DNA from: Acholeplasma sp.
GTDB lineage: Bacteria > Bacillota_I > Bacilli_A > Acholeplasmatales > UBA5453
Length of the DNA: 64,000 bases
Direction of reading: 5' to 3'
Assembly: GCA_036677365.1 (NCBI GenBank)
Contig: JAVBWN010000001.1
Coordinates: 16,664-80,663, forward strand
The notes under the pieces were generated by a model. The model searched no databases. It saw only the letters and a list, made by a program, of their open reading frames with translations, and was not told the DNA's origin. Made by a program: the position numbers and the translations under genes. Below, piece by piece: positions 2,651-58,540 of the stretch (its first letter is position 1; each line of letters starts with the position of its first letter).

Positions 2651-3856
2651 ATGCTAGATGTCAAACTTATACGTCAACAATTCCCCATTTACGACCATAA
2701 TCCAAATCTAGTATATTTAGATACAGCAGCCTCTTCATTGAAACCTAAAAATGTCATCGATGTGGTAGATCATTATTACTCAAAACTGGGTGTCAATGTC
2801 CACCGTGGTGTTTATGGGCTATCCTATGAAGCAACCGATTTGTATGAAGCAGCCAGAACCACTGTAGCGAGATTTCTCAATGCGAAATTTGAAGAAATCG
2901 TGTTCACACGTGGGACCACTGCATCACTGAACTTGGTAGCATCTAGCTATCAAAAACAACTTAAAGCAGGCGATGAAATCATCACCTCTGAACTAGAACA
3001 CCATTCATCTGTGTTGCCATGGATGCAAGTATCCAAAAACACAGGCGCTAAATTGGTATATGTACCACTCAATGCTGAGGGGAGAATTACCGTTGAAGCA
3101 TTTAAATCGGTGCTCACTGACCAAACCAAAGTGGTTGCACTAACGTATGTTTCCAACGTCATGGGTTATGTCACACCAATCAAAGAAATCATCGATTTGG
3201 CACATCAAAAAGGTGCCATTGTGGTGGTTGATGCTGCTCAAGCAGCCCCACACATGAAAATCGATGTGACCGCTTTAAATGCAGATTTTCTAGCATTTTC
3301 AGGACACAAGATTTTGGGTCCTACCGGCATAGGTGTTCTCTATGGTAAAAAACACTTACTCAACAAAATGGAACCCACTGAATTTGGTGGTGACATGGTT
3401 GATCAAGTGGAATTGAATGGGGCGACATGGAAAGATACCCCATATCGTTTTGAAGCAGGTACACCTATCATATCTGGTGCCATCGGATTAGGTAGAGCCA
3501 TTGAATTCATTGAATCGATTGGTTTTGATGAAATACACGCACACGTGCACGCATTACATCAATATACATTAGAGAAGATGAAAGCCATTGATGGCATCAC
3601 TGTCTTTAACCCAACCTCAGAAACAGGTATCATTACGTTCAATGTGGACTTTGTTCATCCACATGACGCAGCCAGCATTTTCGATCAAAATAAAGTGTGC
3701 TTAAGGGCGGGGCATCATTGTGCCCAACTCATCACCAAATGGCTCAAACAATTGGCCACGTTGAGAGCAACATTTTACATCTACAATGATTATGAAGATG
3801 CCGATCGATTTGTTGAAAGCATCCAAGAAGCGGTTCGTTTCTTCAAAGCTTTTTAA
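2651..3856 (+). CDS. sufS: Cysteine desulfurase SufS
   Basis: NVHRG, FSGHK (PLP Lys), RAGHHCAQ. Confidence 0.97.
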   Translation: MLDVKLIRQQFPIYDHNPNLVYLDTAASSLKPKNVIDVVDHYYSKLGVNVHRGVYGLSYEATDLYEAARTTVARFLNAKFEEIVFTRGTTASLNLVASSYQKQLKAGDEIITSELEHHSSVLPWMQVSKNTGAKLVYVPLNAEGRITVEAFKSVLTDQTKVVALTYVSNVMGYVTPIKEIIDLAHQKGAIVVVDAAQAAPHMKIDVTALNADFLAFSGHKILGPTGIGVLYGKKHLLNKMEPTEFGGDMVDQVELNGATWKDTPYRFEAGTPIISGAIGLGRAIEFIESIGFDEIHAHVHALHQYTLEKMKAIDGITVFNPTSETGIITFNVDFVHPHDAASIFDQNKVCLRAGHHCAQLITKWLKQLATLRATFYIYNDYEDADRFVESIQEAVRFFKAF

Positions 3857-24909: not shown

Positions 24910-25905
24910 ATGAGCGTAAAAGTAACGATTTATGAAGTAGCCTTAGCGGCAAGAGTCTCATTAGCAACCGTTTCAAGAGTATTAAACAACCCTGAAAAAG
25001 TTAAACCAGACACGAGAGAACGCGTCTTAAAAGTCATTAAAGAACTCGGCTATCGCCCAAATGCGATCGCTAGAGGTTTGGCGAGCCGTAAAACCACCAC
25101 TGTGGGTGTTTTGGTCTCTGATATCACGAGAGCTTCTGTTGCTGAAATGCTTGGGGGTATCTCCGACATCGCGATGAAGTATAGCTATTCAATCAAACTA
25201 TTCTCTGCCCATGAAGATGTCAACATCATCGAACTCATCAACGACATCGTGGCTGAACAAGTCGATGGCGTGTTGATCTTAAACGATGAGCTCGACGCAT
25301 CTAGAATGAAGAAAGTCAAAGAATTATTTGACGAAAACGAAATCCCATTCGTTTTAGCGAACGTGGTCAATGAGGATAGATCTGTACCAAGCGTATCCAT
25401 CGATTATGAAAAAGCAGGGTATGAAATCACCAAATTGATGATTGAAATGGGTAAAAAAGACATTTACATGCTTTCTACCGTGAGAAAATATTCCGTCAAC
25501 GATAAGAAAGAATTGGGCTACACCAGAGCAATGCAAGAAGCACACTTAATGCCACGCGTGTTCAGAACCTCCGGGACGACATCTGTTAACCGTCAACATT
25601 TCGCAAACTTCTTCGCCGATAAGATCATCGATGGTGCCATTGGTGTCCGTGACTCGATTGCCGTATCTTTCATGAATATTGCGAATGAATCTGGCCGTTC
25701 TGTCCCTGAAATGGTATCTGTCGCAGGCTTCCAAAATACGAAGTATGCGCTTTTATCCCGCCCAACCTTGACATCGATTGATATCCCAGTGTATGATATC
25801 GGTGCAGTAGCCATGAGACTATTAACCAAACTCATGAATAAAGAACAACTCGATTCACTTCAAGTTGTATTACCTCACTACATTGTGAGAAGAGAATCAT
25901 TATAG
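24910..25905 (+). CDS. ccpA: LacI-family regulator, probable catabolite control protein A
   Basis: VTIYEVA...VSLATVSRV...YRPNAIARGLASRKTTTVGV; YDIGAVAMRLLTKLMNKE; cre-like TGAAAGCCTTTACA at 24856-24869 in its promoter. Confidence 0.88.
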   Translation: MSVKVTIYEVALAARVSLATVSRVLNNPEKVKPDTRERVLKVIKELGYRPNAIARGLASRKTTTVGVLVSDITRASVAEMLGGISDIAMKYSYSIKLFSAHEDVNIIELINDIVAEQVDGVLILNDELDASRMKKVKELFDENEIPFVLANVVNEDRSVPSVSIDYEKAGYEITKLMIEMGKKDIYMLSTVRKYSVNDKKELGYTRAMQEAHLMPRVFRTSGTTSVNRQHFANFFADKIIDGAIGVRDSIAVSFMNIANESGRSVPEMVSVAGFQNTKYALLSRPTLTSIDIPVYDIGAVAMRLLTKLMNKEQLDSLQVVLPHYIVRRESL

Positions 25906-26105
25906 GGTCGTTGAAAAAAACACAGTAAGCTTAAACTTTAGAACATAGAGACTTTGTGTTAGGTGAAAACAAAGCTGGGTTTAAACTGAATTACACTTTT
26001 GGAGATCCAACAATTAAAAAGAGTGCTATGGGCAACCATAGAACTAAGGTGGTACCACGATTGTTATAGTCGTCCTTAGATTGATTTTTAAGGACGGCTT
26101 TTTAT
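25906..26105 (+). promoter_or_regulatory. T-box riboswitch (Tyr)
   Basis: AGAGA/GGTGA stem I motifs; specifier UAC at 25992-25994; T-box AAGGTGGTACCACG 26046-26059; terminator before tyrS. Confidence 0.93.
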
Positions 26106-33170: not shown

Positions 33171-33307
33171 ATGCCTATTTTATGATAAAAACAGGGTTTT
33201 GTCAAAATATTTCCAACCCAAATCGATAGATAGATCAAATGATATCGCTTTAATGGTTTTATGGGTTGACAATATATTTTTTAATAGTATAATTCAACTT
33301 GTTGATA

Positions 33308-33450
33308 TCTCCGAATCCACAGAGTGGGGGACCCATCCATTTCAGGGGTGAATGGCATCATTTAGATACCTAAGGATACTTAATGTCCTGAATCCGTCAG
33401 CTAACCTCATAGGAGTGATTAAGCGTATAAATCATTTATGCGTTTTTTTT
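33308..33450 (+). promoter_or_regulatory. c-di-AMP (ydaO/yuaA) riboswitch with terminator
   Basis: CCGAATCC..GGGGGACCCA..GGGGTGAAT..CCTGAATCCGTCAGCTAACCTC.TAGG; TTGACA-16-TATAAT (33266-33293); hairpin plus U8 at 33421-33450. Confidence 0.9.
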
Positions 33451-40158: not shown

Positions 40159-40623
40159 ATGATTACAATTTATACTACACCAAGTTGTTCGTCATGTCGA
40201 AAAGCGAAAAAGTGGTTAGAGGAACATCATTTGCCATATGAAGAGAAGAACTTATTCTCCAACCGTATCACAGCCAATGATATCAATTTAATGCTCAGGA
40301 ATGCAGAAAATGGTTTTGAAGACATCATCTCCACCCGTTCAAAGATTTTTAAAGAACAAAATTTGGATGTAGATGCGATGTCAGTGAACCAATTAAAAGA
40401 TTTCATCATCGATAATCCAAGTGTTTTAAAACGTCCAATCATTTTAGACGATCAAAAGATGCAAGTCGGATACAACGATGAAGAAATTAGGGTCTTTATT
40501 CCAAGACGCTTAAGACAACTTGTGATGTGCGCAGACTGTCCAGCAGGCGAAACCTGTGACTATCAAAGTGCCATCAAACGTTATTTTGAAGAAATCAAAA
40601 AAGAACAACAAAAATCCTACTAA
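40159..40623 (+). CDS. spxA: Spx/MgsR-family regulator with a Cys-rich C-terminal tail
   Basis: PSCSSCRKAKKWL, GFEDIISTRS, LKRPII, GYNDEEIR. Confidence 0.9.
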   Translation: MITIYTTPSCSSCRKAKKWLEEHHLPYEEKNLFSNRITANDINLMLRNAENGFEDIISTRSKIFKEQNLDVDAMSVNQLKDFIIDNPSVLKRPIILDDQKMQVGYNDEEIRVFIPRRLRQLVMCADCPAGETCDYQSAIKRYFEEIKKEQQKSY

Positions 40624-40662
40624 CGATGTCCATGCGACATCGTTTTTATTTTCTATTCAGAG

Positions 40663-40714
40663 TGTAAACGATTACAGAAAAGAGATTGACACCGCTAAAA
40701 GTATCGCTTATAAT
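40663..40714 (+). promoter_or_regulatory. Consensus sigmaA promoter with an upstream cre-like site
   Basis: TTGACA (40686-40691), 17-bp spacer, TATAAT (40709-40714); TGTAAACGATTACA at 40663-40676. Confidence 0.85.
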
Positions 40715-40739
40715 GTGGTTGGTATCGTCATCCAATACT

Positions 40740-40872
40740 ATGTCAATCGCAAACCTAGAGCAATCTAGTGACGCAAAGCTATAGGGTCTTTATGAGACAG
40801 CCAGTTGCCATTTCAGAAGCATTTGTGTGGTAACTTCATTTAAAGTCTACACAAATGGTGGGGACTTTTTTT
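40740..40872 (+). promoter_or_regulatory. c-di-GMP-I (GEMM)-class riboswitch with terminator/antiterminator platform
   Basis: GCAAACC-TAGA-GCAA-TCTAG-TGACGCAAAGC-TATAGGGTCT..GAGACAGCCAGTTGCC follows the GEMM consensus; alternative hairpins at 40820-40857 and 40843-40872. Confidence 0.88.
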
Positions 40873-40985
40873 ATTGGAAAGTCAAAGATTTACATAGATC
40901 ATATTGATGGCTTCAAATGATTTATGACACACCCCTCATAGATGTGAAAACATCAAAAAACCACAGGCGGATGACCTGTGGTTTT
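40873..40985 (+). ncRNA. Putative riboswitch-gated structured RNA (read-through segment)
   Basis: Hairpin 40893-40926, C-rich CACACCCCTC, GATGT-GAAA-ACATC tetraloop hairpin 40941-40954, ends at terminator 40957-40985; no RBS-led ORF. Confidence 0.4.
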
Positions 40986-40990
40986 CTATT

Positions 40991-42073
40991 TTAGTGCCTT
41001 GTGTAAATGTCGTTATATTGTCTGTGTACTCGAATGAATGTCGTACACTTGGACAAATCTTTGAGTGTTTTCGCACCCACATAAGTACAGGTCGAACGGA
41101 TACCACCTAAGATGTCTTTCACGGATGTGTCGACATTGCCTTTGAATGGAATCTTAACGGTTCTACCCTCTGAACTGCGGTAATCCGCAACTTCACCTTT
41201 GTGTTTGATCATGGCCGTAGAAGAACTCATCCCGTAAAACTCAACGAACTTTCTCACTTCATAAATCGGTTCAAAGGTTTTCATATCCTTTTGGTGGGTA
41301 TCGTGGTACTCGGTAATGACTTTACCGCCACCCTCTGAGTGTCCAGCAAACATGCCACCAAGCATCACGAAGTCTGCGCCAGCCCCAAAGGCTTTCGCAA
41401 CATCCCCAGGACAAGTACAGCCACCATCGGAGATGATGTGTGCGCCTAAACCATGGGCAGCATCTGCACATTCGATGATGGCAGACAGTTGTGGGTAACC
41501 CACGCCCGTTTGAATACGCGTGGTACATACAGACCCCGGTCCGATACCGACTTTAACGATATCAACCCCACGCAGGATCAGTTCTTGAGTCATATCGGCA
41601 GTGACCACATTTCCAGCGATGATGACGTGTTTTGGATAATCTTTTCTCACCTTGGACACAAATTCACCAAAAGCCTCTGAGTAGCCATTGGCCACATCGA
41701 TGCAGATGAATTTTAAAGATGGGTTATTTTCTATGGTTGTTTTTAGGTTTAAATAGTCTTCTTTAGAAGTCCCAGTAGATACTGCGAAGTATTCAGGGTT
41801 CAAGGTAGGTAATGCTTCAGTGATTTGAGTCGGGGTGTAATTTTTCACCAAACATGTGAATAATTGACGTTCTCCCAAAGCTTTCGCCATTTCAAGGGTC
41901 CCCACACCATCCATGTTCGCTGCCATGATTGGCACGCCAGTCCATGTTTGGGCGGAATGTTTAAAAGTGTACGTACGATTCAAATCGACTTCTTTTCGTG
42001 AAGCGAGGGTCGAACGTTTTGGTCTAATCAATACATCGCTAAAATCTAACTTTTCATCGAGTTCAATACGCAT
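40991..42073 (-). CDS. guaC: GMP reductase (E. coli/eukaryote-like type)
   Basis: MRIE...[43 protein letters not shown]. Confidence 0.95.
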
Positions 42074-42182
42074 ATATAGGCCTCCCATTAAATTCCATTA
42101 ACAGTATATACGATTTAGTCCGATTTGTGTGAGGTTTTCTAAATATAACGGTTTCATGCAAATTAAAAGACCCGTCAAGGGT

Positions 42183-50009: not shown

Positions 50010-50105
50010 CTTACAGAGTAATAAGGAAGCGTTAAGTGATCAACCATGGGATGTCGGGTTGGTACGAACACGTAAGTGGCGGTTTCCTTGTGCGTCCGCT
50101 GTAAG
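50010..50105 (+). promoter_or_regulatory. THF (tetrahydrofolate) riboswitch
   Basis: CAGAGTA..GCGTTAAGTG..ATGGGATGTCG..ACGAA..GCGG..GCGTCCGCTG, upstream of a folate ECF S component. Confidence 0.92.
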
Positions 50106-58193: not shown

Positions 58194-58299
58194 GGGTTTA
58201 TTCGCGTATTTACGCAATTCTTAAGATTTATTTATAATTCGCTAAAAAATGGGTTGCAATCTCATTGGATGTGACCTATAATTGATGTATACTTAATCT

Positions 58300-58540
58300 G
58301 GTTTAAGGTGTACTTAGTACATAACAGGGAAGAAAGTTAAAAGCTTTCGCTGCCCCAGCAACCGTAAGATGGACAACTCACAAATACCACTGTGTATAAC
58401 GGGAAGGTGTGATGCGGATGAAATCGAGCCGGTAGACCTACCTAAAACCCAATCAAGTACCGCCTGGGTGATGCGTGTATGAACAACAATTTTTGATTGT
58501 TATTTATATCTATACTCCAGGTGGGTATAGATTTTTTTAT
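58300..58540 (+). promoter_or_regulatory. Cobalamin riboswitch with terminator
   Basis: AAGGT..AACAGGGAA..GCTGCCCCCAGCAACCGT..CCACTG..GGGAAGG..GAGCCGGTAGACCT; TTGCAA-17-TATAAT promoter at 58254-58282; hairpin plus U7 at ~58508-58538. Confidence 0.92.

Follow-up and report, generated by a model that had tools for sequence, protein, structure and literature searches.

The window analysed here, a 64,000-nucleotide (nt) stretch of an Acholeplasma sp. genome (assembly GCA_036677365.1, contig JAVBWN010000001.1), contains between spx and the convergent guaC gene a 367-nt spacer that may encode an RNA regulated by c-di-GMP (cyclic dimeric guanosine monophosphate). At a probability of about 0.5, we read this spacer as a stand-alone non-coding RNA gene made up of a promoter, an aptamer, a switchable terminator, a functional 3' module and a final terminator. 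Prediction finds each part of this architecture, namely a promoter of its own, an aptamer, a ligand-dependent terminator and a conserved module, with no open reading frame (ORF). From the sequence we infer its transcription, its ligand, the ON direction of the switch in the cell and its action in trans. The unit comprises the following predicted features:

40686-40714, + strand: sigma-70-type promoter, a perfect TTGACA-17-TATAAT (12/12), with a start predicted near 40721
40738-40812, + strand: c-di-GMP-I (GEMM-I) aptamer, Rfam RF01051, 53.9 bits
40748, + strand: C at a ligand-contact position, Rfam model position 11, equivalent to G20 of the Vc2 aptamer by alignments to the model
40803-40835, + strand: anti-antiterminator, AGUUGCCAU (aptamer 3' strand) with GUGGUAACU, from a pairing check and the unconstrained fold
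40820-40857, + strand: antiterminator hairpin, CAUUUGUGU/ACACAAAUG, exact complements
40843-40875, + strand: switchable terminator T1, AAGUCUACAC/GUGGGGACUU, 9/10 paired with one A-G mismatch, and a U7 run
40860-40883, + strand: GGG and hairpin H1, GACUUUUU/GGAAAGUC, predicted in 6/6 orthologues folded singly
40893-40926, + strand: long hairpin H2, -12.2 kcal/mol
40927-40940, + strand: C-rich linker ACACACCCCUCAUA, 64-100% identical among orthologues, a candidate seed or binding site
40941-40954, + strand: hairpin H3, GAUGU-loop-ACAUC, -5.2 kcal/mol, stem invariant and loop variable
40955-40990, both strands: bidirectional terminator T2, hairpin 40957-40985, -15.7 kcal/mol, common with guaC

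In the proposed mechanism, transcription would start near 40721, at a consensus promoter with a LacI-family/cre-like box upstream. Without ligand, AGUUGCCAU would pair with GUGGUAACU, the antiterminator would be blocked, and T1 would form and release an RNA of about 150 nt. With ligand, the 3' strand would be held in the aptamer, the antiterminator at 40820-40857 would form, and the polymerase would read on to T2. The read-through product of about 270 nt would carry H1, H2, the C-rich linker and H3, and this module would be the selected, trans-acting part. The order along the spacer is the spx terminator, the palindromic box, the promoter, the aptamer, the expression platform ending in T1, about 85 nt of structured sequence, and T2. 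A sequence check found all the elements listed in the original prediction, made from the DNA sequence of the window, where that prediction had placed them.

A c-di-GMP-I aptamer with a C at the G20 position

The aptamer match spans the full RF01051 model (1-87 of 87), which has a gathering score of 35, and orthologous aptamers score 53.8-64.1 bits. Together with the 12/12 promoter, this score bears out the earlier claim of a genuine GEMM-I aptamer under its own promoter. The orthologues come from relatives of the window genome (G000, 1.97 Mb) in Paracholeplasma, here termed G002, G004, G005, G007 and G009, and from the metagenome loci M035 and M036; one metagenome scan contributed just two loci, of which one matches the window at 99.5% identity. 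The first hairpin of the window aptamer carries a GNRA tetraloop (GCAA, 40760-63), the element that docks into the receptor of the second hairpin, and model position 38, at 40775, is the intercalating adenine equivalent to A47 of Vc2. Behind the last helix, the conserved GCC lies at 40807-09, and it may contain the counterpart of Vc2 C92, the cytosine that pairs with the second guanine of the ligand. The correspondence of G11, A38 and C81 with G20, A47 and C92 is used as given for the Bc1 aptamer in PMC11218506.

The aptamer departs from its class at the G20-equivalent ligand-contact base. The Rfam model has a conserved, unpaired G at position 11, and the G20 base that it represents contacts one guanine of c-di-GMP according to PMC5888326. 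In G000, M035, G004, G009 and M036 this position is a C in place of the expected G, whereas the orthologues of G007 and G002 and the two paralogous aptamers of G000 have G. Among 21 distinct related aptamers (regular-expression picks from 22 loci, with identical 45-nt starts counted once), 19 have G at this position, and C is confined to the subclade of the window. G20 and C92 are described in PMC9049102 as less conserved than A47, with mutants that bind more weakly and have a higher dissociation constant (KD). Because G20 is the less conserved base in that account, we regard the C as the mark of a variant that keeps its membership in the class.

The G20-to-C change appears to have arisen in the ancestor of G000, G004 and G009, a clade with support of 93/97. 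Aptamer identity to G000 is 99% in G004, G009 and M036 and 86% in G007, against 41-64% at guaC fourfold sites. An aptamer that has remained 99% identical since the change would therefore still be constrained, and c-di-GMP is its most likely ligand, possibly at altered affinity. G-to-A changes at G20 shift ligand choice, as is known from riboswitches for cyclic GMP-AMP. A literature search for G20C together with riboswitch and c-di-GMP returned the modelling paper PMC9049102 as its only relevant match.

Two further bases vary around this site. The base before C40748 is U instead of A in the window subclade, and the base after the last helix is G in the C-bearing subclade and A in the G-bearing G007 and G002. 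Since this G occurs together with C40748 (also in loci L025, L026 and L036), a C-G pair across the junction is conceivable. Elsewhere in the taxonomic order, GEMM-I aptamers are found in tandem, with two to three matches within a few hundred bases, for example in L021 (G014), G037:C1:1397827-1398142 and G008:C1:1034511-1034695.

The host genome points to c-di-GMP signalling beyond this locus, with 20 GGDEF matches and two further RF01051 aptamers besides the window copy. One of these paralogous riboswitches precedes a GGDEF gene, and the other lies in front of two genes without a Pfam family, next to a GGDEF-EAL gene. GGDEF/EAL proteins in Acholeplasma laidlawii were noted by a 2008 genome survey (PMC2408644), and no paper dealing with riboswitches in this group came up in our literature search on Acholeplasma and c-di-GMP.

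Expression platform and switch logic

The switch pairings named in the original prediction exist. More specifically, AGUUGCCA (40803-10) pairs with UGGUAACU (40828-35) through seven Watson-Crick pairs and one G-U wobble, and the latter is an A-U pair in G007 through a G-to-A change in the aptamer strand. The antiterminator can be extended to 40818-40859 (-14.8 kcal/mol); one of its A-U pairs is a compensatory G-C in G007, and one U-A pair is U-G in G009 and M036. The T1 hairpin (-8.1 kcal/mol), which is absent from the list of a simple terminator scan, is kept in G004, G009, M036 and G007; G005 lacks its 5' strand.

The unconstrained minimum-energy fold of 40721-40880 (-39.6 kcal/mol) consists of the anti-antiterminator together with T1. 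When the aptamer bases 40738-40812 are withheld from folding, as a proxy for the ligand-bound state, a 15-bp antiterminator hairpin forms and T1 does not. The proxy covered five orthologues (G000, G004, G007, G009 and G002) and gives a clean switch in three of them (G000, G004 and G007). Folding with and without the aptamer bases, in combination with the compensatory antiterminator pair, supports the ligand-ON logic proposed earlier, and ligand binding probably turns read-through ON.

The 3' module is structured and conserved

The predicted 275-nt transcript folds with z = -3.62, and 0/200 shuffles fold as well. In 6/6 orthologues folded singly, the same plan is found, in which a GGG...CCC pairing closes a junction with H1 and H2 and is followed by H3 and T2. 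In the window fold, GGG 40860-62 pairs with CCC 40933-35, and H1 reuses the U-run of T1. As the pairs of H1 are invariant or changed on one side only, covariation is neutral on this hairpin.

H2 provides the covariation signal of the module. The MAFFT/RNAalifold alignment of the tail misaligned H2 between G000 and G005, and the pairs were therefore recounted on a gapless 34-nt alignment of four long-form sequences, from which G009 and M036 were left out as having a different, shorter hairpin. Compensatory double changes occur in 3/14 pairs, all three from one lineage, and one further pair changes from G-U to A-U. H2 cells are paired at 92.9%, as compared with at most 51.8% in slid controls, and 6/500 shuffles reach this value in what is, with four sequences, a small test. 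G009 and M036 share an 11-nt deletion, together with changes by which a 7-bp hairpin is rebuilt where H2 would lie.

Sequence conservation extends across the whole tail. The segment 40873-40956 is 57-100% identical to G000 across four further genomes, save for the replaced hairpin of G009, while guaC fourfold sites reach 64% in G004, 41% in G009, 41% in G007 and 45% in G005. Identity to G000 over H2 alone is 97% in G004, 91% in G007 and 74% in G005. Across the orthologues, H3 is 69-100% identical, the CCCU of the C-rich linker is conserved in 7/7 sequences, and T2, the predicted 3' end of the long form, is 94-100% identical. The tail exceeds both the guaC fourfold sites and the adjacent spacer in identity, which agrees with the expectation of a conserved structured segment downstream of the switch and, together with the compensatory pairs of H2, supports purifying selection on the module. 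A GAAA-tetraloop hairpin had been described at 40941-40954; the hairpin is present and its GAAA loop is not conserved, with other loops in G007 and G005. No credible Rfam family was found for the tail at E<=10.

As to its function, it is possible, although tentative, that the C-rich single strand CCCUCAUA pairs with G-rich, Shine-Dalgarno-like sites; binding of a protein by the module is less likely.

The locus in relatives

Among 22 genomes of the family, guaC is present in eight, all from this genus, and spx and guaC are convergent in 8/8. The full arrangement of box, promoter, aptamer, T1, module and T2 is found in G000, G004, G009 and G007 and in the metagenome loci M035 and M036. G005, which is Paracholeplasma vituli (100% identical over 3534 nt to strain 92-19), carries the box as its reverse complement, the promoter, the 5' leader and the module. 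No aptamer was found in its spacer at E<=1, and the predicted RNA is still highly structured (z = -5.9).

In G002, a promoter, an aptamer of 64.1 bits and a terminator are followed by a 315-nt structured RNA (L029 2576-2890, - strand; z = -9.0) with a 25-nt long-range inverted repeat and an inner promoter-like TTGACA-17-TAAAAT. The tail of this RNA has no Rfam match and no copy in the 21 other family genomes. By BLAST it looks unrelated to the module, yet the two share three collinear 8-mers, located at the H2 apex, in the H2 3' strand and at CCCUCAUA; such a chain arises in 15/5000 shuffles and 14/5000 random genomic pieces. The last of these 8-mers sits in a 12-nt apical loop of the G002 RNA. 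With an aptamer at the same place and three collinear 8-mers, the link between sensor and module appears to be old. Since the module persists without the sensor in P. vituli, and the sensor goes with a diverged module in G002, the module would be the working part; as the diverged module retains the C-rich motif, the C-rich strand would be its most likely, though tentative, business end.

The remaining arrangement, in the distant G001 and G003, is a 116-amino-acid (aa) membrane-protein ORF with a ribosome-binding site (RBS) in the spacer and no aptamer. A protein gene at this place in relatives had been named as an observation that could undo the reading of a non-coding RNA, through a recent deletion. 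Such a gene does exist in these two genomes; the ORF has no similarity to the window spacer (best tblastn E = 1.4), to the other spacers or to the G000 genome, and we rejected a deletion scar on this ground. With the ORF lacking both an accompanying aptamer and any detectable similarity to the spacer, there is no sign of such an event. About 150 nt of GC-richer sequence precede the ORF (L030 ~935-1080; also L031) as a possible leader, and no Rfam match was found for it at E<=1.

The guaC tree unites the five module-bearing genomes in a single clade with support of 100/100, and G002 groups with G001 and G003 under a midpoint root only. An old aptamer at this site that was lost in P. vituli is the most economical reading of this distribution. 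The module appears to be confined to the locus: BLAST of the tail against its own genome found itself alone, and the module was not found elsewhere in the 22 family genomes. A covariance model of the module (R1) matches the five genomes from which it was built, and two further weak matches (29.1 and 25.8 bits) cover the terminator part only. Public runs that contain the window stretch come from sludge and wastewater.

A broader interpretation, which we consider doubtful, is that Paracholeplasma has a modular riboregulator family in which an ancestral c-di-GMP sensor gates a small RNA (sRNA) with the C-rich seed CCCUCAUA, the sensor was lost once, and a selected C20 retunes the binding pocket. 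CCCUCAUA would then be the one part kept between two otherwise diverged tails, and the G20-to-C change would lower the affinity for c-di-GMP or shift specificity to another cyclic dinucleotide; we hold both of these parts to be as doubtful as the interpretation itself.

Search for a coding sequence

The original prediction stated that no ORF follows the switch, and comparison of the orthologues likewise finds none conserved. Small ORFs of 21-26 aa occur in and after the platform in G000, and from one orthologue to the next such ORFs have other starts, reading frames and lengths. Under genetic code 4 (TGA read as W) nothing plausible appears; the one frame, of 55 aa, extends across both terminators. 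A conserved hydrophobic small ORF of the kind expected for a type I toxin was not found on the opposite strand.

Upstream elements and neighbouring genes

The unit is flanked and preceded by the following predicted features:

40622-40650, + strand: spx intrinsic terminator, from a scan (stem 40622-40644, then a T-run), the upstream limit of the unit
40663-40676, no strand assigned: palindromic LacI-family/cre-like box TGTAAACGATTACA, 14 nt, its centre about 52 nt upstream of the predicted start
40721-40739, + strand: conserved 5' leader with a small 5' hairpin GGUAU/AUACU, 74-91% identical across orthologues

The 1.97-Mb genome has 15 perfect TTGACA-17-TATAAT copies, where 10 shuffles give an expectation of 0.8. 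Both promoter hexamers are conserved in 7/7 aligned sequences, with TTGACC in G005, and the position of the promoter places the putative transcription start near 40721. The 5' hairpin forms in G005 too, with changed bases, and may act as an RNA stabiliser.

The box TGTAAACGATTACA is identical in G004, G009, M036 and G007 and is replaced in G005 by its reverse complement, so that counting this form it is conserved in 7/7 sequences; the spacer beside it (40651-40662) is merely 42-50% identical. It fits the pattern TGWAANCGNTNWCA, which we take to be that of the cre site. The genome contains seven matches to this pattern, a number that is not a significant enrichment over 20 shuffles (mean 3.3, maximum 7). 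The cre-like box of the earlier account therefore stands on its fit to the presumed consensus and on conservation, and finds no backing in genome-wide frequency. The best LacI-family protein scores 292 bits against TIGR01481 (CcpA), for which the cut-off is 442, and a CcpA-like gene lies in the window at ~24919-25899. An identical 14-mer (G000:C27:22651, L039 ~3152-3165) overlaps the promoter of a beta-glucan gene cluster that encodes GH149-like and glycanase-like proteins and adjoins a LacI-family regulator. Another LacI-family regulator may just as well use the box as its operator, and a link to carbon status through this predicted box is plausible. A second palindrome, GAAACCGATTTC, occurs twice in the leader of the beta-glucan cluster (L039 3195-3290).

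The names given earlier to the neighbouring genes are borne out by profile scores above both cut-offs: spx (40159-40623, + strand) scores 174 bits against a cut-off of 123, and guaC (40991-42088, - strand), whose product is GMP reductase, scores 542 bits against 397. The Spx protein has 154 aa, of which the Spx models cover residues 1-121 only; the extra C-terminal tail, with the Cys-rich stretch CADCPAGETC, is kept in 8/8 genomes of the genus. Further Rfam elements above their cut-offs in the window are T-box, cyclic di-AMP (ydaO), tetrahydrofolate and cobalamin riboswitches, at 25902-26080, 33299-33430, 50012-50103 and 58289-58459.

Public transcripts and target search

Public RNA runs were available as assembled contigs and give a weak hint at most, given that short RNAs are usually lost in such libraries. 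Contigs from three metatranscriptome studies (X4, X5 and X7) cover spx to 40610-40620 and guaC from 40994-40996 and leave the spacer uncovered. X1, which is probably DNA, spans the whole stretch. X4 and X7 also contain contigs matching 36-45 nt of the aptamer core (40749-40793), with a word depth of 83.8 in X4. These pieces, at 40749/40758-40793, were rejected as transcripts of the unit because they run into unlike sequence; they belong to a different c-di-GMP aptamer locus that is well expressed in these communities.

Target prediction, which had been suggested as a check, gave no outlier in duplex scans. A genome-wide scan with a 25-nt C-rich probe returned 5462 windows at or below -15 kcal/mol, which is a broad background, and the genome contains 64 candidate start sites of the TGAGGG type. 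The best candidate at a translation start reaches -24.3 kcal/mol, compared with a mean of -11.9 (standard deviation 3.3) over 3351 sites. It belongs to an ORF of 247 aa that falls into no Pfam family and is the first gene ahead of two GGDEF genes (G000:C20:24394-24426; L047 ~895-927), with an 11-nt perfect complement to the C-rich motif that covers the RBS. The match is identical in G004, 10/11 in G009 and weak in G007 and G005; with the 11-nt match not conserved, we rejected this ORF as target evidence and kept it as a lead.

Evidence against the proposed RNA gene and alternative explanations

Several observations weigh against the proposed RNA gene. No experimental sign of the RNA was obtained, and no target stands out, the value of -24.3 kcal/mol being roughly the chance best of 3351 start-site windows; the complementarity of this candidate is lost in G007 and G005. 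The C-rich motif is partly paired with GGG 40860-62 in the predicted fold. H2 is largely replaced in G009 and M036, and among the six distinct orthologous sequences that exist, H1, H3 and T2 never covary; the covariation anticipated for the downstream hairpins is thus found in the three compensatory pairs of H2 and in none of the others. The folding proxy fails in 2/5 orthologues, with the antiterminator formed in both states in G009 and the terminator in both states in G002. From their coordinates, the anti-antiterminator and the antiterminator could in principle coexist or stack as a pseudoknot. Finally, because the G20-equivalent base is C, binding of c-di-GMP is not assured.

The RNA might instead be a buffer for c-di-GMP, similar to the merRNA sponge, whose job is ligand binding and whose module and T2 stabilise the long form. 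Such a role has been proposed for a gene-less c-di-GMP riboswitch RNA of Bdellovibrio (PMC3627812), and it would fit the strong consensus promoter, the lack of any gene or target found, and an aptamer that is 99% identical in three species. P. vituli, however, retains the promoter and module without any aptamer, which argues that the module is valuable apart from ligand binding. Furthermore, a C at G20 would, if anything, weaken binding, given the higher KD of G20 and C92 mutants in PMC9049102. We consider this explanation unlikely.

Local regulation of guaC is also improbable. The long form would overlap the 3' end of guaC mRNA across T2, or the polymerases would collide, and the drain on guanine nucleotides would thereby be tied to c-di-GMP. 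A promoter-led RNA unit does point at guaC from the spx side in 6/8 guaC-bearing genomes of the genus, 5/6 of these units carry an aptamer, and the gene encodes a true GMP reductase. In G002 most of the downstream sequence differs, with position and orientation unchanged. Against this, T2 separates the two genes and is a strong terminator in both directions, so that antisense read-through should be small, and overlap of the shared terminator alone is common to any convergent pair. The conserved module of H2, C-rich linker and H3 would be left unexplained. As guaC was found in 0/12 genomes of the other three genera of the family, the comparison behind this link is confined to one genus.

We disfavour still more the idea of a decaying relic, in which the gene of the riboswitch was lost and the remainder is a drifting spacer with terminators. 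It would account for the absence of a following gene, the 116-aa ORF in the spacer of two congeners, the decayed aptamer of G005 and the mutated core contact base of the window aptamer. Conservation far above fourfold sites and adjacent spacer, compensatory pairs in the antiterminator and H2, and a promoter and box retained in 7/7 sequences all speak against drift, and the 116-aa ORF has, as described above, no similarity to the spacer.

A micro-ORF or leader peptide, which would start at an (A/T)TG directly behind the U-run of T1, use GGUGGGG as its RBS and be translated on read-through, is very improbable: alignment gives an ATG in M035 and G009 and a TTG in G004 and M036, opening 15-18 aa frames, and small proteins behind c-di-GMP riboswitches are reported in Clostridioides difficile (PMC13724677), but a 1-nt difference leaves a 7-codon frame in G000, the start position of G007 reads ATC, an in-frame start is missing from G005, and the 11-nt deletion of G009 and M036 alters the C-terminal half.

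Comparison with known systems

Due to the shared principle of an aptamer and a ligand-dependent terminator that decide the inclusion of a 3' module, the proposed RNA gene resembles EutX of Enterococcus faecalis and Rli55 of Listeria monocytogenes, which respond to adenosylcobalamin (PMC5821096). These RNAs use another aptamer class and ligand, and the ligand shortens them, whereas in the window it is predicted to lengthen the RNA. Their 3' module is a known EutV-binding dual hairpin; for the window module, the duplex scans singled out no partner.

Closer in aptamer class are RCd11 and RCd12 of C. difficile, where PMC11477304 describes class I aptamers before non-coding RNAs, plus an orphan one. 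The class I switches of C. difficile are OFF switches in that account, whereas the logic in the window appears to be ON. As type I antitoxins, RCd11 and RCd12 lie antisense to a toxin gene, and they have a second promoter; no toxin-like ORF was found opposite the window RNA, and G002 has the inner promoter-like site. The merRNA of Bdellovibrio bacteriovorus is likewise a c-di-GMP riboswitch within an sRNA, reported in PMC3627812 as having no conserved downstream ORF and a narrow lineage. It is 445 nt long, massively expressed and proposed to act as a sponge, whereas the window RNA is a prediction, and one congener of the window species has the module but lacks the aptamer.

Vc2 of Vibrio cholerae and Bc1 of Bacillus thuringiensis share the GEMM-I aptamer and differ in that both precede protein genes. 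According to bioRxiv 10.1101/617340, Vc2 also affects an sRNA, located upstream and controlled through its stability. The long platform of Bc1 includes two terminators 28 bp apart, with no module between them in the description given by PMC11218506.

The novelty implied at the outset was overstated, since gene-less and RNA-gating c-di-GMP-I riboswitches are already described in PMC3627812 and PMC11477304. The new elements are this specific module, the modular way in which it is gained and lost between sister species, its predicted wiring as an ON switch and the aptamer variant with C20.

Implications

Riboswitches that gate non-coding RNAs are few, and the purposes suggested for c-di-GMP cases include a sponge in Bdellovibrio and a dispensable antitoxin promoter in C. 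difficile. The practical reach of the present case is modest, as the bacterium is an uncultured inhabitant of sludge and the clade is narrow, with five to six species. Should the doubtful, broader interpretation of a modular riboregulator family hold, then, within the literature searched, no riboswitch-gated sRNA acting in trans would have been described earlier in the Mollicutes lineage, and no natural C20 variant of GEMM-I would have had a defined role before. The sister species offer a natural dissection of the unit, with sensor and module together, the module alone, the sensor with an expanded module, and neither, and P. vituli is available as an isolate. Within this series, the C20 variant could show how second-messenger sensors get retuned.

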